Assembly: GCA_039028615.1 (NCBI GenBank)
Contig: JBCCHT010000003.1
Location: forward strand, 320,001 to 384,000
Length of the DNA: 64,000 bases
Direction of reading: 5' to 3'
Source of the DNA: Myxococcota bacterium
GTDB lineage: Bacteria; Myxococcota_A; Polyangia; Nannocystales; Nannocystaceae
The notes beneath the pieces are model-generated. The model had not been told where the DNA came from and ran no database searches. It saw only the letters and a list, made by a program, of their open reading frames with translations. A program made the translations under genes and the position numbers. Position 1 is the stretch's first letter. Every line of letters begins with the position of its first letter. Positions 11,199-54,812 of the stretch are shown piece after piece.

Positions 11199-11980
11199 GG
11201 TTCGCGCTGCTACTGGCCTCGGTGGGGGCGCATGTGCTGGTGGTCGCGGTTTCGCCTCGCGGGCAGCCGCATGCCGACGATAACGACGAGCGCGAGGCCG
11301 AGCTGCGACCGGTGGAATTGCTCGACGCGTTACCGCCGACGATGGCGGTCGAGCCGGAGCCCGAACTCGAACCCGAGCCCGAACTCGTCCCCGAGCCGGA
11401 GCCCGCTCCCGAGCCCATCGCCGAGCCGCCGCCCGAGCCCGCCGCACCGCCTCCGAGTCCACCGCGCCCGCCTCTTCGCGCCCGACCCACGCCCCCCAAA
11501 CCGGCGGCGGCTCCGGCCGAAGCCTCCGGTTCGGTGCCGGTCGCCGATGCCGAGTCCGCGAGCCCGGCCGAGCCTGCGGCGCCGCCCGAGCCCCGGGCCC
11601 TCGATCTCACCCTGTCCAACGACGGCGAGGGCCAAGGAGGCACGGGTCGTGGTCGAGGGCGCCGCCCCGCTCCCGCCTCGACCCCGGCGACCCCGCGCTG
11701 CCGAGAGCCTCGCAGTAAGCCGCGGCCCCGCACCAAGAAACCGGTCAAGTACACCCGCGAAGCCCGAGCCGCCGGCCTCGAAGGCCGACTCATCTTGCGC
11801 GCGTCCGTCGATCGCCGCGGGACGGTGACCGGAGTCGAGGTCGTGCAGTCGGTGGGCCCGTTGGTCGACGAGCCGGGCGTCGCGGCCATGAAGCAGTGGA
11901 CCTTCGAGCCGGCGACCGCCTGCGGAGATGCAGTCGCCAGCCACTACACCATCGCTCGCGACTTCGCGCTGGGGGACTGA
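11195..11980 (+). CDS. tonB: TonB energy transducer
   Basis: N-terminal TM with SxxxH (SVGAH), EPEP Pro-rich linker, C-terminal YTREARAAGLEG...VDRRGTV...WTFEPA. Confidence 0.85.
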   Translation: MRFALLLASVGAHVLVVAVSPRGQPHADDNDEREAELRPVELLDALPPTMAVEPEPELEPEPELVPEPEPAPEPIAEPPPEPAAPPPSPPRPPLRARPTPPKPAAAPAEASGSVPVADAESASPAEPAAPPEPRALDLTLSNDGEGQGGTGRGRGRRPAPASTPATPRCREPRSKPRPRTKKPVKYTREARAAGLEGRLILRASVDRRGTVTGVEVVQSVGPLVDEPGVAAMKQWTFEPATACGDAVASHYTIARDFALGD

Positions 11981-36151: not shown

Positions 36152-36358
36152 ATGTCGCTGCCGGGCGCCCGCCTTCGATGGCACCTCATCGAGAAGCCTC
36201 GTGCTCCGTTCGTTTGTGATGTCTGTGGCCAGTCGATTCCCGAGTCGGAGCTGCACACCTTCACCACGCTGCCCACGATGTACTACGACACGCCGCCGGC
36301 CGGGTACGAGCCGTGCAACAAGGGCTTCGATCCGCTGAAGGTCGAGTACGACGCTTGA
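36152..36358 (+). CDS. Small hypothetical protein with CxxC
   Basis: TATCCT-N6-ATG start; FVCDVCG...H...C. Confidence 0.5.
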   Translation: MSLPGARLRWHLIEKPRAPFVCDVCGQSIPESELHTFTTLPTMYYDTPPAGYEPCNKGFDPLKVEYDA

Positions 36359-36876
36359 GAGCGCGTCGCTTTCGGGGGCAGGGGCTCGAGTTTCGACCGC
36401 TGACACCGGATGATCGGAGGTTGTTCGTCGGGCTCTTCGGGAGCCCCGAGGTGATGCGCTACGTCGCCGATCCGTTTCCGCCCTCGCAGGCCGACGAGGC
36501 GTTCGAAGGCCTCATGGTGGCCACGGCGGGGCCGCGGCCGAGCAAGCTGCGCTGGACGATGTGGCACGACGGCTTCGACGACGCCGTGGGGTTTTGCGGG
36601 GTCAACTGGTCGGGCGAGGACGCTCGAGATGGCGAGCTGGGCCTGATGCTCCGGCCGCAGTGCTGGGGGCGAGGGTGGTGCGAGGACGGCCTGCGGGCGC
36701 TCGTGGTCGAGTGCGCGGGGGCGAGGGGCGGCGGCCTGTTCTGCCAGTCCTACGAGTCCCACGTTCGGGTGCGGCATATCGTCGAACAAAAGCTCGGCCT
36801 GCGGGTGAGCGAGCGGCTGCCCGGGACCGAGGCCCTCGGCCCCTTGCTTCGCTACGAGTTCCCCGATCCGGCATGA
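36355..36876 (+). CDS. GNAT N-acetyltransferase (RimJ/RimL-like)
   Basis: LEFRPLTPDD, SPEVMRY, VGFCG, GELGLML.P..WGRG; TTG start overlapping the upstream stop is assumed. Confidence 0.75.
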   Translation: MRARRFRGQGLEFRPLTPDDRRLFVGLFGSPEVMRYVADPFPPSQADEAFEGLMVATAGPRPSKLRWTMWHDGFDDAVGFCGVNWSGEDARDGELGLMLRPQCWGRGWCEDGLRALVVECAGARGGGLFCQSYESHVRVRHIVEQKLGLRVSERLPGTEALGPLLRYEFPDPA

Positions 36877-36909
36877 AAAAGGGCCGGCGATGAGCCGACC
36901 CTCTTTTTT
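36876..36909. terminator. Bidirectional intrinsic terminator closing the borosin operon
   Basis: Minus strand: GGGTCGGC-TCATC-GCCGGCCC-TTTTT (8-bp stem, one G-U pair). On the plus strand the stem is followed by TCTTTTTT. Confidence 0.8.
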
Positions 36910-36945
36910 GTCCTCAGCCCTGAAGGCTGGTCTGTTCGAGCCGAC

Positions 36946-37317
36946 CTAGTAGGCGATCACCAATTGGCGGTGGTCGTTGGGGTCGTGCGTGAACAGGATC
37001 TGGCGGTGCTCGTCCTGGCCATGGGTCGCCAGGATCTGGCGATGCTCGTCTCCGGCATAGGTGATCACCATGTGGCGATGCTCGTCCTGGCCGTGGGTCA
37101 CGAGGACCTGGCGGTGCTCGCCGTCGGCATAGGCGACCACTAGGTGGCGGTGCTCGTCCTGGCCGTGGGTCACCAAGACTTGGCGGTGCTCGGCGTCGTC
37201 ACCCGCGGCGAGACCAGCGTCGGCGAGCACACTCGAGGGGTCGTCGCGGAACGCCCGAAGCTTCTCGGAGTTCGAACCCAGCTCCACCAGGAAGTTCAGC
37301 GTGTCTTGCTCGCTCAT
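36946..37317 (-). CDS. Split-borosin RiPP precursor with seven tandem cores
   Basis: AAGGAG RBS; leader FLVELGSN.EKL.AFRDDPSSVLADAGL resembles the SonA/LigA-like borosin-binding domain; followed by 12-aa (E/D)HR(Q/H) repeats; 33 nt after the methyltransferase stop. Confidence 0.85.
   Translation of the reverse strand: MSEQDTLNFLVELGSNSEKLRAFRDDPSSVLADAGLAAGDDAEHRQVLVTHGQDEHRHLVVAYADGEHRQVLVTHGQDEHRHMVITYAGDEHRQILATHGQDEHRQILFTHDPNDHRQLVIAY
36949..37191 (-). repeat. 36-nt tandem repeat, about 6.75 copies, encoding the precursor cores
   Basis: EHRQVLVTHGQD / EHRHLVVAYADG / EHRQVLVTHGQD / EHRHMVITYAGD / EHRQILATHGQD / EHRQILFTHDPN / DHRQLVIAY-stop. Confidence 0.95.
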
Positions 37318-37350
37318 TGGACTCCTTAATTCAATGAGGACGCCGGGCTG

Positions 37351-38169
37351 TCAAGTCAGATCGTCCTGCGACAACCCGAGCTTCTCGAGCATGGCGCCAT
37401 TCACTTCGAGCGGGCGTGCGGGCGGAATCACCAGCGTGGTGATCATGCTCAGCGTCGCCGACGCCAGCTCGGAGAGTGGGCGCGATTCCATTCTCGGCGT
37501 GCCGGTCGGGAGGAAGGGCGCCTCGTAGAGCGTGACGAGGTGATCGGCGGGGTACCACTGGCGCAAGTAGTCCACCGCGATCTGCACCTTGTCCGGCGTC
37601 GTCGCGAACGTGCGCAGGGTGTGCTCGCCCACCAGGCCCCACTGCCACAGGATCATGAGCGCGCTCGGATCGACCGGGTGCTGGTAGAACAGGAACTGAC
37701 TCGCCTCGTAGGACAGACACCCGGTGGTGCCGGGGTCCAGGCCGAGGTCGGCGACGAGGCAATCCTCCGCGGAGATGCCCGGCTCCATCCACGCCTCCAA
37801 GCCTTCGGCCTGCGCCCGTCGAATGCTCTCGTGTGATGGCCAGGCGAAGACCCCGGGATGCCCGTAGAAGGCACCCACGACTTTACGACCGGCTCGAGCC
37901 GGCGCCAGGATCGCTTCGACCATTTCCTCGTAGGTCTGACGACGCGACTTGCCCTCGCCGTAAAAGCGCTGCAGCGACTGGTAATTCGGGTTCATCGACT
38001 CGAGCCACTGGTCGGCCATCGCATCGGGCATGGCCCCGAATACGAGGTCGGCTTCGCGGATGTAGCTGCTCGCGAGGGTGGAGATGTGGCTGCCCAAGCA
38101 GATGCCCGTGCCGAGGCATACGACGCTGCCGCCTCGGTGGCCGTCGTCGCCGGTCTTCGGTGCGCTCAT
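37351..38169 (-). CDS. Borosin peptide backbone alpha-N-methyltransferase (SonM-like)
   Basis: GSVVCLGTG, FY..GKSRRQTYEEMV, YGHPGVF, PGISAEDCL.ADLG.DP, EASQF, LWQ, WYP.DH.V..YEA, TTLVIPP; Y70/R76/Y80/Y102 match the spacing of OphMA Y66/R72/Y76/Y98. Confidence 0.92.
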   Translation of the reverse strand: MSAPKTGDDGHRGGSVVCLGTGICLGSHISTLASSYIREADLVFGAMPDAMADQWLESMNPNYQSLQRFYGEGKSRRQTYEEMVEAILAPARAGRKVVGAFYGHPGVFAWPSHESIRRAQAEGLEAWMEPGISAEDCLVADLGLDPGTTGCLSYEASQFLFYQHPVDPSALMILWQWGLVGEHTLRTFATTPDKVQIAVDYLRQWYPADHLVTLYEAPFLPTGTPRMESRPLSELASATLSMITTLVIPPARPLEVNGAMLEKLGLSQDDLT

Positions 38170-38276
38170 TGGCGGTGAGCGTAGCCGCCAGGGGCCGCAG
38201 GTGCACTCGCTCCGTGACCCGCGTCACCTCGTAGCGTTGACGCCACCAAAGCGCCCCTCCTATCGTCGGCGCCGAG

Positions 38277-39275
38277 ATGAAGCGCGCCCTGGTCACTGGA
38301 GGATGTGGATTCGTCGGGCGTCACCTCGCCGATGCCCTGGCCGACCGAGGAGACCAGGTCACCGCCATCGACATCGCGGGTGAAGCATGGCGGCCTGAGG
38401 TCGAAGTGAAGATCGTCGACATCCGCGATCCGGCCGCCATCGACGCGGCCGTCGAGGGCCACGACGTCGTGTTCCACAACGCGAGCCTCGTGCACACCCG
38501 CCGCAGTCGCGAAGAAGACGTCTGGGCCGTCAACCTCGGCGGCACCAAGAACGTGCTCGCCGCCTGCCGCACGCACGGCATCCGCAAGCTCGTCTACGTC
38601 AGCTCCGCCAGCGTCGTGTACGAGGGCAACGACATCGAAAACGGCGACGAGACCCTCGCCTACGCCGGTACCTCCCAAGCCGCCTACGCGGACTCCAAGA
38701 TCGCCGCCGAGCGCGAGATCCTCGAGCAGAGCGACGACCAGCTCGCCACCTGCTCCATCCGCCCTCACGTCATCTTCGGCCCTGGCGACACCCGCCTGCT
38801 CCCCGCCATCCTCGACCGCGCCCGCCAAGGCCAGCTCAACTACTCCGTCGGCAACGGCACCCACCTGTCCGACTTCACCTACGTCACCAACCTCACCGAC
38901 GCCCTCCTCGCCGCCGAACAGAAGCTCGAGCCCGGCAGCGAGATCGCCGGGGAAGCCTTCTTCGTCACCAACGGCGAGCCGCTCCCCTTCTTCACCTTCG
39001 TCGGCCGCGTCCTCGAGGGCCTCGAGCTCCCCCCCATCCGCCGCCGCGTCCCGTATTTCGTCGCCTACAGCGTCGCCGCCATCAAAGAGACCTGGGACAC
39101 CGTAGTCCGGGGCGGAACCCTCAACTCCGAAGACGGCTTCTCCCGCTTCGCCGTCCGCTACCTGTGCACCCACCACTACTTCGACATCGGCAAAGCCCAA
39201 CGCATGCTCGAATGGACCCCCCGCATCTCCCTGGAAGAGGGCGTCCAACGCACCGTCGCCGCCCTCCGAGCCTAG
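38277..39275 (+). CDS. 3-beta-hydroxysteroid dehydrogenase/decarboxylase (NSDHL/ERG26-like extended SDR)
   Basis: TGGCGFVG, VNLGGTKNV, SSASVVYEGNDIENGDE, YADSK, IRPHVIFGPGD, DFTYV.N, GEAFFVTNGEP. Confidence 0.82.
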   Translation: MKRALVTGGCGFVGRHLADALADRGDQVTAIDIAGEAWRPEVEVKIVDIRDPAAIDAAVEGHDVVFHNASLVHTRRSREEDVWAVNLGGTKNVLAACRTHGIRKLVYVSSASVVYEGNDIENGDETLAYAGTSQAAYADSKIAAEREILEQSDDQLATCSIRPHVIFGPGDTRLLPAILDRARQGQLNYSVGNGTHLSDFTYVTNLTDALLAAEQKLEPGSEIAGEAFFVTNGEPLPFFTFVGRVLEGLELPPIRRRVPYFVAYSVAAIKETWDTVVRGGTLNSEDGFSRFAVRYLCTHHYFDIGKAQRMLEWTPRISLEEGVQRTVAALRA

Positions 39276-39446
39276 TGATGCGGCCACGACCCACGCCGAG
39301 CCATTGGGGAGCACCCCCGTAGGATCAACGACCCCACACCAGCAGCCCCGCGCCGAACTCCGTAGGCCCACACCGAGTCGCACTCCACACCGCCCTCCGC
39401 CGACCGCCGTAAACGGAGGAGCGCCAGCGCCCCTCGCCCAGCAAAA

Positions 39447-39580
39447 GGGGCCGCGCCGACGGGAGGGCCCCATGCCCCGACCGAGGACTTAAGGCGAGCA
39501 GGCAACTCTTCGCCCAACCTCAGCGGCAACGCTCGCCCCGCAGGGCGGGGCATGGGAGGGGCCCGTCGACAGCAGGCCCC
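39447..39580. other. Multi-stem palindromic intergenic element (REP/MITE-like or structured RNA)
   Basis: Nested inverted repeats GGGGCC/GGCCCC, CGACGGG/CCCGTCG, CCCATGCCCCG/CGGGGCATGGG enclosing small hairpins with GCAA loops. Confidence 0.55.
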
Positions 39581-39650
39581 GTGCACCGCAGCGGCCCGAG
39601 CCCATCGAGGACTCCAGCAGCCCGTGCACCGCACGCGGGATCAGCAGACT

Positions 39651-40937
39651 CTACTCCTCGACCACCGCATAGACGGAGCCGAGGCACATCTCGTCGCCGG
39701 TCCCTTCGCCCCAGGTGACGGGTTCGGTCGCGTCCATGGTGTCGAACTCGCAGGTGATCCGCAGCGAGTCCTCGCTCGAGATCTCGATCCTCTCGTCGTA
39801 CCAGTAGCTCCGCTGCCAGTTGAAATCCCAGCGGGGGATCTCGAGCAGACATTCGACCTCGCCATCGGGGCCTACCCGCTCGATCCGCTGCGAGACCCCG
39901 CGCTTGTGCATGTGCGGGTTGGCCCCGAGCAGCCGCAGGTTCTTGGTCCCCTCGAAGTCCACCTGCCACGAGATGGGAAAGTCATCGGTGGTGACGAAGC
40001 TTCGCTGGCCCGGCTCGCCCACGAAGTCGAGATCGATCGCAACGAGCTCGAGCATCGGCCGCAACGACCCCGTGGGTTCCGCCTGCAGCTCGAGGGTGGT
40101 GCGGTCCGTCTGCCCTGGACCCCCCGCCACGTTGTAGTGCATCTCGATGATGAGCGGCATCTCCCCATCGACCTCCACCCCGATGCCCTCGGGGAACAGC
40201 TCTGCCCCCGCACCGGGAGCCCAGCCCGCCACGCTGGTGGCGTCGACCTGCGGCCCCGTGCCGAGACAGGGGTAGCCGGGCTCCTCCGAGTCCGCGTCGA
40301 GCTGTCGCGCCTCGTCGGCGGCGGCCTGGTCCATGGCCTGATACGCGATGAGGTGATGCACGATGCTCGGGTTGCCGGGCACGACATTGAACCCGGAGAT
40401 GGCCATGGCCCCCGGAGAGTCGACGACGAAGCAGCGGTAGTCGTCGGTCTGGCTCTGGTCGGGCAGGTAGTCCACGCCGATGTCGACGGAGCGGATGTCG
40501 CCATCGAGCTTCGGTCGTAGCTGAGGCTCGGGCGCGACGATGCTGGTATCGCCCTGCTCGGCGCCGCCTTCGACCCACAGCTCGAACGACTCGATCTGCT
40601 CGTCGCTGAGCCACTGCGAGTGCTTGAAGGTGCGGCACTCCCCGGAGGCATCGGCGAGATAGGGCGGCATCCGACGGTCGCGGACCGAGCTGGCGATGGC
40701 CGAGGACCAGTTGCTCGCGTCCTCGTAGTTGTCGAGGGCGAAGGGGGCCGCGCCGCCGGCCTGATGACACCCGACGCAGTACTCCGCGAGCAAGGGGCGG
40801 ATGTGCTCGGTATAGGTGCGAAGCGCCGCGGCCTCGTCCTCGATTTCCATGGGCGTGTCCGCCTGTTGTTTGCAGCCGACGAGGGCGATGGCCAGGGAGC
40901 ACAGGGCGATGGAGCGATGGGTCATGGGGAGGGTCAT
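39651..40937 (-). CDS. Copper type II ascorbate-dependent monooxygenase-like lipoprotein with c-type heme motif
   Basis: LVGC lipobox; CVGCH, RRMPPY; DDYRCFV, IVHHLI, EMHYN, PHMH..G, WDFNWQ..Y, GEGTGDEMC. Confidence 0.85.
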   Translation of the reverse strand: MTLPMTHRSIALCSLAIALVGCKQQADTPMEIEDEAAALRTYTEHIRPLLAEYCVGCHQAGGAAPFALDNYEDASNWSSAIASSVRDRRMPPYLADASGECRTFKHSQWLSDEQIESFELWVEGGAEQGDTSIVAPEPQLRPKLDGDIRSVDIGVDYLPDQSQTDDYRCFVVDSPGAMAISGFNVVPGNPSIVHHLIAYQAMDQAAADEARQLDADSEEPGYPCLGTGPQVDATSVAGWAPGAGAELFPEGIGVEVDGEMPLIIEMHYNVAGGPGQTDRTTLELQAEPTGSLRPMLELVAIDLDFVGEPGQRSFVTTDDFPISWQVDFEGTKNLRLLGANPHMHKRGVSQRIERVGPDGEVECLLEIPRWDFNWQRSYWYDERIEISSEDSLRITCEFDTMDATEPVTWGEGTGDEMCLGSVYAVVEE

Positions 40938-41506
40938 CTCGATTCCACGACGACCTTGAGCAGCTTCCACTCGTTGGCGCCATGGTTGTGCAGGTGAAAG
41001 AAGACGGGCTCGTCGGCTGTGATGTCGCGTTCGAGCACGATCCGCTCGCGGTAGATCCGAGCGGGTGCGGGGATGTCGACGGTGCGCTCCCAGTGCAGGG
41101 CCGAGCCGGCCATCAACGCGACGTGGGCTCGAGAGGCCTCCGACTCGGGGTCAAAAAGCTGCAGGTGCGCGAGGGTGAAGGAGACGACGGAGCCGGCCGG
41201 GACGTCGCTCAGGGCGGGCTGCTGGAGCGCGAGGTAGTTGCAGGTCCCAGTGTCGATATCGAGGGCGCCGTCGGAGGTCAGGCGCCAGGCCTCGCCCGGC
41301 TCGCACTCGACCTCGGCCGGGGCATGCCCGGTGAGGGCCTCGGGCTCACGAGTCGTGGGCACCCACTCCGTGTTTTCGACCAGAATCGGGACTGCGGGTT
41401 CCACGCCACGGGTCGCGAAGGGGTCGTCCTCGGGGGCTCCGCAGGCGACCAAAAGCAGCGAAAACGCCACGCCAAGGGCACGTAGCGGGGTTTCGGCTCC
41501 AAACAC
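40934..41506 (-). CDS. Hypothetical lipoprotein coupled to the monooxygenase
   Basis: LVAC lipobox, DTGTCNY, HLQL, FHLHNHGANEW; ATGA overlap with the downstream gene; TACACT-N6-GTG start. Confidence 0.7.
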   Translation of the reverse strand: MFGAETPLRALGVAFSLLLVACGAPEDDPFATRGVEPAVPILVENTEWVPTTREPEALTGHAPAEVECEPGEAWRLTSDGALDIDTGTCNYLALQQPALSDVPAGSVVSFTLAHLQLFDPESEASRAHVALMAGSALHWERTVDIPAPARIYRERIVLERDITADEPVFFHLHNHGANEWKLLKVVVESR

Positions 41507-41549
41507 GAAGGCAGTGTAGGGGCGACATCCCCGGCCGGGTACGGCGGAT

Positions 41550-41583
41550 CCGACGAACCGGGGGTATCCGCCGACGAACCGGG
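41550..41583 (-). promoter_or_regulatory. Putative LytTR-binding direct repeat
   Basis: CCGACGAACCGGG (plus strand) exact at 41550 and 41571 (21-bp period), upstream of a -10-like TACACT (41513-41518, minus strand). Confidence 0.65.
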
Positions 41584-41610
41584 CCGGTCGCGATTGCGGG
41601 CCCTCGGGGG

Positions 41611-42660
41611 GTGCCGTCACCATGGGATCGCGTGCCCCGTCCGACACGACTGGTCGTCCTCCCGCTGGTGATCGCGTTGATGATCATTCCCGCGGTCTTG
41701 CCCGCGTCGCGAGGCGAGCACGACGCGGAGTGGTGGATGGGCCTCGGGTTCGTCTATGCCCAGCTGCTGGTCGTGCTGGCGGCGACCGAGGGCATCTGCC
41801 GCGCGGTGATGGCCGACCAGCGGGCGACGACCCGCGGCGTGCTGCTGGGGCTTTCGTGCTCGCTCGGGCTCGAGTGGGCGCTGTCGACCATGGAGTGGCT
41901 GTGGCTGCCCGAGTACCAGGTCTTCGAAGGAGAGGAGCTGCTGACCTACTCGGAGGTGATCGCCATCTCGGTGCTCTTCGGCTTCATGTCCTTTGCCATC
42001 TGGGTGCTGGCGTTTCGTTACCCCGAGTTCGTGGCCCGCGACGCCGCGCGAGCCCACGAAGCGGAGCGCCTGCGCTCGATGGCGGATCGGCAGGAGCTCG
42101 AGGCCCGGCTCGCGCCGCACTTTCTGCTCAACACCCTCAACGCGGCGGCGGGTCTGACCGCGACCGAGCCGGACACGGCCCGCGATGTCCTGGTCTCGCT
42201 CGGGGATCTACTGCGGGCGGCGCTCTATCACGATCGCGACGAGACCCACACGGTGGCGCAGGAGCTGACCCTGACCCGCAGCTACACCAGCATCCTCGAG
42301 GCTCGCTACGGGGTCGATCGCCTACGCTTCGAGTGGAAGGAAGACCCGGCCGCCAAGGCGCGCACGCTCCCGCCGCTGCTGCTCCAGCCCCTGGTCGAAA
42401 ATGCGGTCAAGCACGGGGCGCTGCGCAGCCCCAAGCCTTCGGTGGTGGGCATCGAGACCGCGCTGAGTGCCTCGGGGGACCTGCTGCTGCGCATCGACAA
42501 CGAGGGGCGCTACGAGCCCGACCCTTCGGCCAAGCGCCACGGCGTCGACCTCGTGCAGCGCCGCCTCGAGTTCATGGGGGAGGGTTGTGGGCTGCAGATC
42601 GACACGGCGCAGGGGCGCACGGTGGCCACGGTGACGATTCCGACGTCGGCTAGCCCTTGA
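41611..42660 (+). CDS. LytS/YehU-type sensor histidine kinase
   Basis: Four TMs; ARLAPHFLLNTLN, HTVAQEL, LLLQPLVENAVKHG; G2 box degenerate (RHGVDLV). Confidence 0.88.
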   Translation: MPSPWDRVPRPTRLVVLPLVIALMIIPAVLPASRGEHDAEWWMGLGFVYAQLLVVLAATEGICRAVMADQRATTRGVLLGLSCSLGLEWALSTMEWLWLPEYQVFEGEELLTYSEVIAISVLFGFMSFAIWVLAFRYPEFVARDAARAHEAERLRSMADRQELEARLAPHFLLNTLNAAAGLTATEPDTARDVLVSLGDLLRAALYHDRDETHTVAQELTLTRSYTSILEARYGVDRLRFEWKEDPAAKARTLPPLLLQPLVENAVKHGALRSPKPSVVGIETALSASGDLLLRIDNEGRYEPDPSAKRHGVDLVQRRLEFMGEGCGLQIDTAQGRTVATVTIPTSASP

Positions 42661-43405
42661 TGCCCAGCGTGCCGTCGAGCAGCGCCTTGCGGACCTTGCC
42701 TGCGCGGTCCCGAGCCACGGGGACCCGCAGTCCGCCCGCGATGACCCAGCTCTCGTCGCGGTCGCGCTCGAGGCCTTCGACGTGCTCCCGCGCGACCAGC
42801 CAGTTGCGATGCACTCGCAGGAAGCGATCGCCGAAATTGCGTTCGAAGGTGGACAGCGTCACGTCGATATCGAAGCGGCTGCCCCGGGCGTGGACATACG
42901 CGAGCCGTTGTTCGGCCTGGACGGCCAAGACTTCGTCCACCTTCACGAAGGTCAGCCCGGCGCGGGTGCGGGCGACGATGCGGCTGGGCGTAGCCGCGGG
43001 CGTGGGCTCGCCGACCCGCGCGAGCAGGCGATCGATGCACTCGGTCACCCGCTGGGGCGAAAAGGGCTTGAGCACGTAGTCGGTGACGCCGAGCTCGTAG
43101 GCCGCGAGGGCGTGATCGGTGGAGGCGGTGGCCAGCACGAAGCTCGGCGCCTCCGGGCGGCCGCGGTATTGCTCGACGAGCGCGAGCCCGGCCACCTCGG
43201 AGCCCCCGAATCCCCCCAGGTCGATGTCGACGAAGGCCACGTCGAAGCGCACGCCGCTGTCGGCCGCGAGGGCTTGGTTGGCTTCGTCGAGGCTCTCGAC
43301 GGCGGCAAAGACCTCGATGCTGGGATGCTGGCCCAACAGCTCGACCAGGTAGCGCCGAGCGGCCCGCTCGTCCTCGACCACGAGGGCCCGCAGCTGCCTC
43401 GCCAT
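42650..43405 (-). CDS. LytTR-family response regulator
   Basis: LVVEDE..AR, FVDI, DHALAAYELGVTDYVLKPF, FLRVHRNWLV, VPVAR; TACGAT-N6-ATG start. Confidence 0.93.
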   Translation of the reverse strand: MARQLRALVVEDERAARRYLVELLGQHPSIEVFAAVESLDEANQALAADSGVRFDVAFVDIDLGGFGGSEVAGLALVEQYRGRPEAPSFVLATASTDHALAAYELGVTDYVLKPFSPQRVTECIDRLLARVGEPTPAATPSRIVARTRAGLTFVKVDEVLAVQAEQRLAYVHARGSRFDIDVTLSTFERNFGDRFLRVHRNWLVAREHVEGLERDRDESWVIAGGLRVPVARDRAGKVRKALLDGTLGIKG

Positions 43406-43476
43406 GCGGACATCGTAGCAGCGATGGTCGGCGACGCTGCCGAGGCGATGCGCTTTGGTCCACGCCGTGGTGCGGG

Positions 43477-46305
<2,829 letters not shown>

Positions 46306-46425
46306 GGGCGGGCGCGAAGATCAGGGTATCCCGGACCTCCCCGAGAGCACGAGCAATCCGAGACCGGCCACCAGCGTCCGCATGCCTCGTTCATGGAGGC
46401 ACCCCCACGAACGTCTCATCCCGAT

Positions 46426-47529
46426 CTAGGGCGCGATGGCGGGGATCAGCAAGACCTGCTCGGCCGCCTGCTCCCCCCGCTTGATGGTGAGGGTCAGTCG
46501 CGAGCCCACCCCGTGCAGCTGGGTCAGGTAGGCGACATCCGACACGCGCGTGACCGGCTGATCATTGATGGCGAGGATGAAGTCACCCTCGGCGAGCTCG
46601 GCCTTGGCCGCGGGCCCGGCCTTCTCGACCTTGGTGATCCGCACCAGCCCGGGGAGCCCACCGTCGATCGAGTTCTCGGCCTTGATGCCCAGTCGCGCGT
46701 GGCGAACTCGGCCGTAGGTCCACACTTCCTCGAGGAAGCGACGCGCCATGGGGGCCGGGACGGCGAAGGCCAGGCCCTGGCCATCGGCTCGCACCGCGGT
46801 GGCGATGCCGACGACCTTGCCGTCGGCGTCGACCAGCGGGCCACCCGAGTTGCCGATGTTGATCGAGGCGTCGGTCTGGATGAACGACCAGATTCCGTCG
46901 GGGCGAAGATCGGGCGGGCGACCGAGGTCGTCGTGATCGCGCCCCAGGCCGCTGACCACCCCGACGGTGACGGTGTGACCGAGCCCGAAGGGCTGCCCCA
47001 CCGCCATGACCCACTCGCCGGGCGTCGGCGGTCGGTCGGAGAACTCGACGGGGCGGAGGTCGTCGCTCGCCCCCTGGACCTCGAGCAAGGCCAGGTCGAG
47101 CAGGGGGTCGGCATGCAGGACGCGAGCCTCGAGTCGGTCGCGATTGCTCAGCTCGACCTGCACCCGAGTGGCGTCGGCGATGACGTGCTCGTTGGTGAGG
47201 ACCTGCCCGCGGGCGCTGACCAGCATGCCGCTGCCGACCCCGCGGAGGTTCTTGCGCTGTCCCGACGAGGTGCGGCCGGACACGGTGGAGACCACCGTGA
47301 CCACCGACGGTGACATCTGCTGGGCGACCCGAGCGAAGTCGGGGACGACGATGGTGTGGCCGCCGTTGGTCGGCGGTGCCTCGCGGCTCGGCGTCTCCAC
47401 GACCCGGGCGGGAGGCGGGCGCGAGCCGGCGGGGGACTCTTCGACGCGACGGCAGCCCATGCCCACCACGAGGGCGAGCGAGAGCAGCGACGCGCGCATC
47501 GCTACGAGAGACGGAAGCGGTACGCGCAT
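46426..47529 (-). CDS. HtrA/DegP-like serine protease with one PDZ domain, lipoprotein
   Basis: GMGC lipobox; GSG, TNEHV, DLALL, IQTDASINIGNSGGPL, GPAAKA.L..GD.I. Confidence 0.93.
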   Translation of the reverse strand: MRVPLPSLVAMRASLLSLALVVGMGCRRVEESPAGSRPPPARVVETPSREAPPTNGGHTIVVPDFARVAQQMSPSVVTVVSTVSGRTSSGQRKNLRGVGSGMLVSARGQVLTNEHVIADATRVQVELSNRDRLEARVLHADPLLDLALLEVQGASDDLRPVEFSDRPPTPGEWVMAVGQPFGLGHTVTVGVVSGLGRDHDDLGRPPDLRPDGIWSFIQTDASINIGNSGGPLVDADGKVVGIATAVRADGQGLAFAVPAPMARRFLEEVWTYGRVRHARLGIKAENSIDGGLPGLVRITKVEKAGPAAKAELAEGDFILAINDQPVTRVSDVAYLTQLHGVGSRLTLTIKRGEQAAEQVLLIPAIAP

Positions 47530-53925: not shown

Positions 53926-54812
53926 CCGGCGTCGGACGAGTACTGCTCGGGCTGGTGGTGGCGGGGTGGCTCGCCGATCAGCTCGCCCGCCCCGATCGCG
54001 ACGTCGAAGCGGGCATCGAGGCCTACGAGGCCGACGAGCTGGACACCGCGCTCGAGCACTTCGAGGCCGCCATCGCGCGGCACGGCGATCAGCCCGAGCT
54101 CAGCTACGACCGCGGCCTGGTGCGCCTGGCTCAGGGGGAGCCCGACGAGGCGCGACGGGCCTTCGAGCGCGCCAGCGAGACCGAAGACCTCGAGGTTCGG
54201 GCCAGCGCGTTCTACGAGCGCGGCAACGTGGCCTTCGACATCGAGGACTGGGACGGTGCGATCGAGGCCTACATCGAGTGCCTCAAGGCCCGCCCCGATC
54301 ACTCCAACGCCAAGTGGAACCTCGAGCTCGCCCTCCAGCGCAAGCAGGAGCAGGAGGACGAGCAAGAAAACGAGGACGAGGACGACAACGAGGACGACGA
54401 GAACGAGGACGACGGCGGCACCGGAGGCGACGAGACCGGGGGCGATGAAACCGGCGGTGACGAGACCGGCGGAGAGGACTCGGGCGGCGAGACCGGAGGC
54501 AGTGATTCCGGCGGAGAGGACACCGGAGGCGGCGATACGGGCGGTGAGGACAGCGGCGGCGAAGAGTCCGGCGGCGACGAGGGTGACAGCGGCGGCGAGT
54601 CGGGCGAGGATCAACCCCCCGAGGACGACGGCGGCACCGGAGAGCCCCCGCCCGAGCAGGACGGCGGCACCGGAGGCGAGCCTCCACCCCCTCCACCCCA
54701 GCCCGCCGACGAAATGGACCTCCAGCGCGCGCTCGATGAGCTCGATGAGCAAGACCAGTTCCCCCTCGGGCGCATCAACGGAGGCCAACGACCTCCGCGC
54801 GAGGACTGGTAA
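53922..54812 (+). CDS. batC: BatC-like TPR protein
   Basis: TPRs (YDRG, FYERGN, AKWNLELAL), acidic low-complexity region, C-terminal EDW. Confidence 0.82.
   Translation: MTGVGRVLLGLVVAGWLADQLARPDRDVEAGIEAYEADELDTALEHFEAAIARHGDQPELSYDRGLVRLAQGEPDEARRAFERASETEDLEVRASAFYERGNVAFDIEDWDGAIEAYIECLKARPDHSNAKWNLELALQRKQEQEDEQENEDEDDNEDDENEDDGGTGGDETGGDETGGDETGGEDSGGETGGSDSGGEDTGGGDTGGEDSGGEESGGDEGDSGGESGEDQPPEDDGGTGEPPPEQDGGTGGEPPPPPPQPADEMDLQRALDELDEQDQFPLGRINGGQRPPREDW
54423..54602 (+). repeat. Degenerate 15-nt repeats encoding GG(D/E)(E/D)(T/S)
   Basis: GGDET x3, then GGEDS, GGET, GGSDS, GGEDT, GGGDT, GGEDS, GGEES, GGDEG. Confidence 0.85.

Follow-up and report, generated by a model that had tools for sequence, protein, structure and literature searches.

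Borosin enzymes methylate backbone amides in a SAM-dependent reaction, with the leader of the substrate accounting for most of the binding (10.1101/2021.12.24.474128; PMC8429565). Bacterial borosins number in the thousands, although in the literature covered a methylated product has been isolated for just one of them and a role established for none. The closest described relative of the locus considered here is the type IV pair SonM/SonA of Shewanella oneidensis, the source of shewanellamide A (PDB 7LTC, 7LTE and 7LTS), in which the borosin-binding domain is carried by the precursor as five helices (SonA residues 1-53) and SonA wraps the SonM loop 208-216 (PMC8429565). The product ends in SYLVISHGNGD with methyl groups on L63 and I65, and the son cluster, which is without a protease, still yields this 16-mer (PMC10549244). 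SonM is not strictly processive (10.1101/2021.12.24.474128; PMC8429565). Its register is set by a bulky or aromatic residue ahead of L63 (SonA Y62), and a single methyl is added if only two residues follow I65 (PMC11751858). Loss of helix 5 is tolerated with the rate reduced by about half (PMC10549244), and a fully duplicated SonA core is processed at about 75% of the wild-type rate to tris- and tetrakis-methylated species, longer duplications working best among those engineered (PMC11751858). Split borosins with several cores are defined as type V, with the binding domain on the enzyme, and repeats are said to be frequent within cores (10.1101/2021.12.24.474128; 10.1101/2024.01.09.574750). 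In RceM/RceA of Rhodospirillum centenum, a type V pair, tandem cores lie on one precursor and each is methylated; RceA has ten near-identical cores that receive one methyl each, and the binding domain is on the enzyme (10.1101/2021.12.24.474128). The sam cluster of Shewanella amazonensis comprises SamM1, SamA1, SamP and a GNAT of family PF13302 (10.1101/2024.01.09.574750).

The locus lies within a 64,000-nt stretch of a Nannocystaceae genome (contig JBCCHT010000003.1, positions 320,001 to 384,000; hereafter the window). The genome (12.27 Mb in 94 contigs, 68.3% GC) is metagenome-derived; its size, GC and wealth of kinase genes suit a myxobacterium-like host, and the sole sequencing run found to hold the borosin locus is a marine metagenome. 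A single contig of the likely source run covers the whole stretch with zero differences; it comes from the same data and is not independent, but being unbroken and free of differences it indicates that the repeat copy number in the precursor is not a visible assembly error. The gene order given in a preliminary description was recovered in full: a 272-aa open reading frame with YGHPGVF, SRRQTY and PGISAEDCL motifs is followed after 33 nt, on the same strand, by a 123-aa frame. The ribosome-binding site described there as strong is TAAGGAG, 4 nt ahead of the precursor ATG. The terminator it placed after the precursor gene corresponds to a hairpin of -24.1 kcal/mol (z -4.65, equalled by 0 of 200 shuffles; z -3.60 on the other strand), although a simple consensus terminator scan did not report it; the hairpin is likely to be a bidirectional terminator serving the precursor gene and a convergent GNAT gene. 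With a GC3 of 0.87 and a codon adaptation percentile of 0.60 against 4083 reference ORFs (0.30 for the enzyme), the precursor frame looks like a real gene. The features are collected in Table 1.

Table 1. Features of the borosin locus, in window coordinates.
Feature	Position	Strand	Basis
Split-borosin alpha-N-methyltransferase, 272 aa, without fused borosin-binding domain	37351..38169	-	PDB search, alignment, tree
Precursor ribosome-binding site TAAGGAG, 4 nt ahead of ATG	37322..37328	-	Sequence
Precursor, 123 aa: leader and seven tandem units	36946..37317	-	ORF, codon use
Leader, residues 1-41, apparent helices 1-3 of borosin-binding domain	37195..37317	-	Profile, models
Seven units, residues 42-123, x-[ED]-H-R-[QH]-three hydrophobic-[TA]-[HY]-[GAD]-x	36949..37194	-	Repeats, core profile
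Hairpin with T runs on both strands, between precursor and GNAT genes	36876..36909	.	Folding against shuffles
Convergent RimJ/RimL-type GNAT acetyltransferase (PF13302), probably 173 aa	36355..36876	+	Pfam, E 1.2e-16

Alignment and phylogeny place the larger protein among the borosin enzymes. Like SonM it is a stand-alone enzyme, and of the same length. Its PDB matches are borosin enzymes in 25 cases out of 25, the best being SonM itself (E 2.4e-90, enzyme residues 14-271), and it is 55% identical to the SonM orthologues L010 and L011. Enzyme residues Y70, R76, R77, Y80, Y102 and F108 align with SonM Y58, R67, R68, Y71, Y93 and F99, and E155, W175, Q176, E182 and F188 with SonM E146, W166, Q167, E173 and F179, all of them described as catalytic or structural in SonM (PMC8429565; PMC11751858). 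The catalytic, lock and clamp residues of SonM are all kept, including the GEH clamp motif, which occurs in 21 of the 119 homologues listed, and by this alignment the active site is intact. The preliminary description had pointed to Y70, R76, Y80 and Y102 as spaced like OphMA Y66, R72, Y76 and Y98, the residues mutated in PMC6108569, and the spacing is indeed the same; with Q176 matching OphMA Q172 the catalytic set is complete. The motifs YGHP and DCL-x-AD, typical of borosin enzymes (10.1101/2021.12.24.474128), are both kept.

The proposal that this frame encodes a borosin backbone N-methyltransferase had been set against a tetrapyrrole methylase lying next to an unrelated, repetitive hypothetical protein. 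The only Pfam match of the enzyme is PF00590 (TP_methylase, E 1.7e-15), as that alternative would have it, but its NCBIfam YabN score is 32 against a cut-off of 525. The tree that had been suggested as a check was built in two forms, a 232-row FastTree rooted on six of the seven other PF00590 genes of the genome and a 60-row IQ-TREE on a hand-chosen subset. The enzyme branches at the base of the clade (100/100) that unites SonM orthologues with further type IV enzymes, without a supported sister, and the six PF00590 genes of the outgroup separate from it. Taken with the uniformly borosin PDB matches and with a neighbouring gene whose leader resembles SonA in sequence and fold, this makes the tetrapyrrole reading scarcely credible, and the two genes are almost certainly a borosin enzyme and its precursor.

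The enzyme gene is single-copy in the genome, no orthologue was found in any of five congeners, and borosin enzymes occur in only 3 of 72 genomes of the family, all distant (36-42% identity), and in 23 of 400 other genomes of the same class. A scan of the genome contigs with the enzyme alone as query gave two weak loci only. In three loci of the same family (L100, L105 and L107) borosin enzymes lie within open frames of 807-882 aa that also hold a leader-like domain and, behind it, a long extra region; these are probably fused borosin types. The nearest relatives of the enzyme are P0015, P0023, P0010, P0016, P0118 and a Kangiella/Colwellia group, and the comparison of precursors described below was made outside the flanks of these sequences. 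No precursor was found near the relatives L076 and L013; L076, a close relative of the enzyme, is flanked by frames that resemble 2OG-Fe(II) oxygenases in sequence.

The amino-terminal part of the precursor can be related to SonA in sequence and in predicted structure. A profile of 12 leaders, two of SonA type and ten from genomes of the same class, built without the window's precursor, matched that precursor and nothing else in the genome (E 2e-4, residues 7-42), and a profile of 47 SonA orthologues again had it as sole match (E 0.46). The enzyme itself has no leader-profile match. Leader profiles cover precursor residues 5-42 at most. AlphaFold, with or without an alignment, gives three confident helices at residues 3-15, 17-25 and 27-33, with block pLDDT values of 81-95 across residues 1-30, and does so even though the alignment placed the columns of helices 4-5 on units 1 and 2. 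In a Foldseek search with the leader model SonA chains made up 10 of the 12 matches listed; nine of these superpose at an rmsd of 0.8-1.0 A across 31-37 residues, none at E <= 0.001. Profiles and models thus agree on three helices rather than a complete bundle of five; since the SonA domain has five, helices 4-5 are missing, and the leader is, on profile and model evidence, a borosin-binding domain shortened to three of its five helices.

Modelling of the enzyme-precursor complex, which had also been proposed, gave a 2:2 assembly with SAH that scores 0.85, against 0.00 for the best control; the mark adopted for such scores is passed by 116 of 157 solved pairs and by 2 of 215 mismatched ones. 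The runs share at least 33% of contacts with partner pLDDT of at least 43. Confident contacts use precursor residues 3-27 only, the interface takes in enzyme residues 220-222 within loop 217-225, the counterpart of SonM 208-216, and no core is placed confidently in the active site. Because the SonM-SonA structure has been solved, the model demonstrates likeness rather than binding and its score may be recall of that structure; with this qualification the leader is predicted to dock on the enzyme.

The remainder of the precursor is a tandem array. The seven 12-aa units of the preliminary description are present, except that the seventh has only 10 aa. Tandem Repeats Finder reports a period of 36 nt with 5.5 copies (70%) and a stronger period of 72 nt with 2.8 copies (85%), the latter arising because His-type units (1, 3, 5 and 6) and Tyr-type units (2, 4 and 7) alternate in the first four. 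As phased here His is the third residue of every unit, and this His and the Arg are invariant. The 13 His residues previously reported for the tail were counted again, but they stem from three columns of one repeated unit and are not 13 independent observations. The description also held that the SonA core ends in LVISHGNGD, as shewanellamide A does, and that the units look like copies of it. A search with a profile that included two SonA-type precursors brought up 54 further proteins, each of them SonA-like, of which 47 were kept for a core profile after sequences shorter than 66 aa and one tagged variant were dropped; three hydrophobic residues followed by [STNH] and HG are kept in 43 of the 47, and none of the 47 has two cores. 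Units 1 to 7 score 13.7, 5.4, 13.7, 0.7, 9.3, 8.9 and 0.7 bits on this profile (p < 0.004, 0.033, < 0.004, 0.18, < 0.004, 0.007 and 0.21, from 300 shuffles each), in a register that sets the unit triplet on SonA L63-V64-I65. By this measure units 1, 3, 5 and 6 (p <= 0.007) are clearly core-like, unit 2 is borderline, and units 4 and 7 do not match, so that the claimed likeness holds for part of the array. Comparison with just one SonA-type sequence gives a weaker signal (p 0.02-0.44). When 92 precursors are searched with a profile built from the units, the two SonA-type cores come first (16.0; the null 99th percentile is 13.0). Ahead of the triplet, all seven units have Gln or His at the position taken by Tyr or Phe in SonA.

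The units also bear a second resemblance, which weighs against the core reading: their first half is similar to helix 4 in other leaders (23.2 for the best window, where the null 99th percentile is 14.7). The unit may have been born by a deletion that fused helix 4 to the core, and may later have been amplified. A possible extension of this is that the array is a lineage-specific repeat expansion of little consequence, derived in part from leader helix 4, with methylation confined to one or two units or the pair left nearly inactive by its shortened leader. The singleton status of the precursor, the missing helices 4-5, the helix-4 likeness itself, the absence of the register-setting aromatic and the location of the locus in a block missing at the same site of a congener (G001) all speak for such an expansion. 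However, the catalytic residues and the ribosome-binding site are intact, the core outscores helices 4-5 in six of the seven units on the SonA profile, and codon use is host-like and not that of a fresh arrival. In addition, 17 of 37 pairwise codon differences among the His-type units are synonymous, which, as the pairs are not independent, is a weak hint of selection on the protein. On balance such an expansion seems distinctly unlikely.

The reading that we prefer, with a probability of roughly 55%, is that of a multicore type IV split borosin in which several units are methylated non-processively and the tail is then trimmed by host proteases into a set of peptides. The three-helix leader would be bound by the enzyme dimer, and the hydrophobic triplets of several units would undergo SAM-dependent backbone amide methylation, non-processively along the tail; by analogy with SonM biochemistry the sites would be residues one and three of the triplet, such as V71 and V73. 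Spacing bears on which units might be reached. The first triplet residue lies 11, 23 and 35 residues past L36 in units 1, 2 and 3, the distance being 29 for SonA and 22 for the helix-5 deletion that is tolerated; unit 1 is thus probably out of reach, serving probably as a spacer that stands in for helices 4-5, while units 2-7 are probably within reach. Only two residues trail the unit 7 triplet, so that it probably receives a single methyl, and with Gln or His in place of the SonA Tyr or Phe the methylation rate may differ and the sites may shift by one. The earlier notion of a multicore precursor is therefore borne out in the seven units, four of them clearly core-like, and is qualified for unit 1, which is probably too near the leader to be methylated. 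Trimming by host proteases encoded outside the locus would then release N-methylated, His-bearing peptides of about 12 residues, and by analogy with the son cluster the locus probably makes a set of related methylated peptides.

No protease was seen among the locus genes scanned, and a search for a PF00026 pepsin-like peptidase had no match in the genome, though it also matched 0 of 14 controls; a DegP-like protease 8 kb away was considered for the processing role and set aside as a conserved host gene. The lack of a protease is shared with the son cluster, whose product is nevertheless cleaved, but it also accords with a rather unlikely alternative in which the tail is methylated yet uncut, a repeat polypeptide lined with His that would bind metal or form beta-sheets, its folding or aggregation being under the control of backbone methylation. 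The fixed 12-residue period with its invariant His and Arg fits a structural repeat, strands are drawn across the tail in the model, and a multicore family of the same class, described below, has up to 24 short units with no clear cut site. The tail pLDDT is 38-54, however, and a fold search with the whole precursor model, dominated by this low-confidence tail, gave nothing at E <= 0.001 and a best Z of 4.7, that is, no standout match.

The His content invites a further reading of the cleaved products. An Xaa-Xaa-His N-terminus constitutes an ATCUN copper/nickel site. If the tail, whose composition might allow metal binding, were cut two residues before each His, the precursor would be a cassette of metal-binding peptides, each product joining Xaa-Xaa-His to a protease-resistant, N-methylated hydrophobic segment. 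This we regard as decidedly doubtful. Where the tail is cut is guesswork, and any phase chosen for a tandem repeat is arbitrary; shewanellamide A starts at an Asp after Gly, and the cut imagined here is alike. No literature linking ATCUN sites with RiPPs was found. If true, this reading would give a bacterial borosin a function, none being known so far for shewanellamide A, and would mean that three leader helices suffice in a multicore borosin.

It is instructive to place the preferred reading, that of a multicore type IV system, against the described systems. In common with SonM/SonA the enzyme gene precedes the precursor gene, the binding domain is on the precursor, the core has a hydrophobic triplet and HG, and the cluster is without a protease; unlike SonA, there are seven units instead of one, a leader of three helices instead of five, no aromatic before the triplet and a His/Arg/acidic spacer, and the GGDEF and efflux genes of the son cluster were not seen among the neighbours scanned. 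The multicore precursor, with four of seven units clearly core-like, recalls RceA, whereas the domain is on the precursor, the enzyme is without one, and two unit types alternate. The engineered SonA-D56-G70dup (Crone et al. 2025) likewise presents a type IV enzyme with a repeated SonA-type core, but that construct has two copies behind a full leader and the present array is natural, with seven. The locus has the type IV layout of separate adjacent genes and departs from that type in the five-helix domain and single core; it departs from type V in the placement of the binding domain, and its architecture lies between published types IV and V. Multicore borosins as such are already known, and what differs here is the natural multicore type IV layout, the shortened leader and the varied, His-rich cores; neither a natural multicore precursor with its own binding domain nor a three-helix leader appears in the borosin literature covered, supplementary precursor lists aside. 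If a natural SonM-like enzyme does act on seven varied cores preceded by a leader of 41 residues, it would offer a ready platform for sets of N-methylated peptides, and would test the minimal size of the binding domain and the methyl register in the absence of the SonA aromatic. Set against this are a singleton precursor from a metagenome-derived genome, known chemistry and speculative biology.

The convergent GNAT gene raises the question of whether the system extends to a third component. As in the sam cluster, a type IV layout has a PF13302 GNAT as neighbour; unlike that cluster, the precursor lacks an acidic tail, the GNAT is convergent, the enzyme falls outside the GNAT-linked clade, and no pepsin-like peptidase is found among the neighbours scanned. 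A three-gene system of this kind, in which the GNAT would acetylate either the precursor or the peptides freed from it, with methylation as a possible signal for cleavage, is very improbable in our estimation, while the weaker statement that the GNAT belongs to the borosin system may be true. Related PF13302-type genes occur at 45 of 80 metagenome borosin loci (32 of the 52 with long flanks). The window GNAT is the top ORF of the genome on a borosin-linked GNAT profile (78.0 bits, 71.2 for the next); in a comparison of profiles the borosin-linked one gives it 84.7 bits and a background one 69.7. None of five congeners has an orthologue, the best matches reaching 31-35% identity. Yet two unrelated GNATs from relatives score nearly as high (76.0 and 72.4 bits, compared with 78.0), the GNAT tree puts the gene on a long branch between the borosin-linked and background sets, the enzyme's exclusion from the GNAT-linked clade is supported at 100/100, and the gene lies on the opposite strand, apparently coupled to a conserved host gene. 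Its likely start, read from the sequence, is a TTG that overlaps the upstream stop. The upstream frame (36152-36358, plus strand) encodes 68 aa with a CxxC motif and no Pfam match, its stop overlapping the likely GNAT start, and a conserved copy is present in G001, the closest of the congeners, bordering a variable block.

In G001 the flanking genes are neighbours, and matches to the window stop at 36351 and restart at 46444. A block of about 10 kb (36352-46443) is absent at that site, with the GNAT, precursor and enzyme genes at its left edge; the rest of it holds genes for a 3-beta-HSD, a copper monooxygenase-like lipoprotein, a histidine kinase, a response regulator (assigned from sequence) and a Ser/Thr kinase-TPR protein. 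The divergent 3-beta-HSD gene has orthologues in three of five congeners, which argues that the block is of mixed origin, and around these orthologues no match to the borosin genes was found in the loci compared. The copper monooxygenase gene (39651-40970) was considered as a linked function and rejected; it is one of eight such genes in the genome, and its position beside the locus is accordingly treated as chance. Recent transfer from an AT-rich host is not supported by the codon adaptation percentiles given above, host-like codon use indicating that the locus is not a fresh arrival.

Searches for homologues returned the precursor largely by itself. In a 5.8-billion-protein search it was the only match among 181 candidates of 67-216 aa; with HMMER, 24 further sequences among 1.84 billion representatives matched at 19-45% identity, and the 13 of these that were inspected are unrelated repeats. 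The ESM Atlas had no feature match at or above 0.9, and none of its structure matches, which were of IniB N-terminal and NHLP-leader-like kinds, reached a TM of 0.5 by query. The 80 metagenome loci supplied 78 type IV precursors after de-duplication, with a profile score of at least 20 and a length of at least 55 aa; two motif copies occur in seven of them and three or more in none. The suggested search for repeat precursors beside borosin enzymes thus gave no homologue of the window's precursor, but it did bring to light a separate family. Ten genomes of the same class (family f15, genera g58 and g35) have precursors in which a leader of full length precedes numerous short hydrophobic-Tyr-Ala/Gly units, with 8-24 copies in the nine counted and repeats also seen in the tenth. 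In these loci (L005, L006 and L090-L097) the borosin enzyme directly follows the precursor, and the units are of VVYAAG, LIYGAG, MVYGA and YIYA types. The enzymes form a clade of their own (100/99), so that a multicore tail behind a precursor-borne leader probably arose more than once. In the extended loci (L151-L155) a Ser/Thr kinase-FGE-sulfatase fusion lies upstream in four of four scanned and a ferritin-like PF12902 gene downstream in three of three; in two loci a related gene that has no Pfam match comes next. The arrangement has the look of a conserved multicore system, possibly equipped with a second tailoring enzyme; no description of it was found in the borosin literature covered, and it may merit more attention than the singleton precursor of the window.

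Several precursors met along the way differ in other respects. In two of the f15 loci (L091 and L094) the repeat precursor slips frame within the array and returns, as if through assembly error or real slippage. A locus of family f90 (L098/L156) has a leader-bearing precursor whose tail carries Pro/Gln-rich, IFPQVHP-like repeats. Type IV precursors at L028, L032, L044, L047 and L055 have an apparently doubled core, intermediate towards the multicore state, and those at L012, L014, L039, L050 and L068 have cationic tails rich in Lys, Pro and Ala. Elsewhere in the window, other genes contain low-complexity arrays of Asp/Glu/Gly/Thr and Pro/Glu repeats (54354-54581 and 11349-11474).
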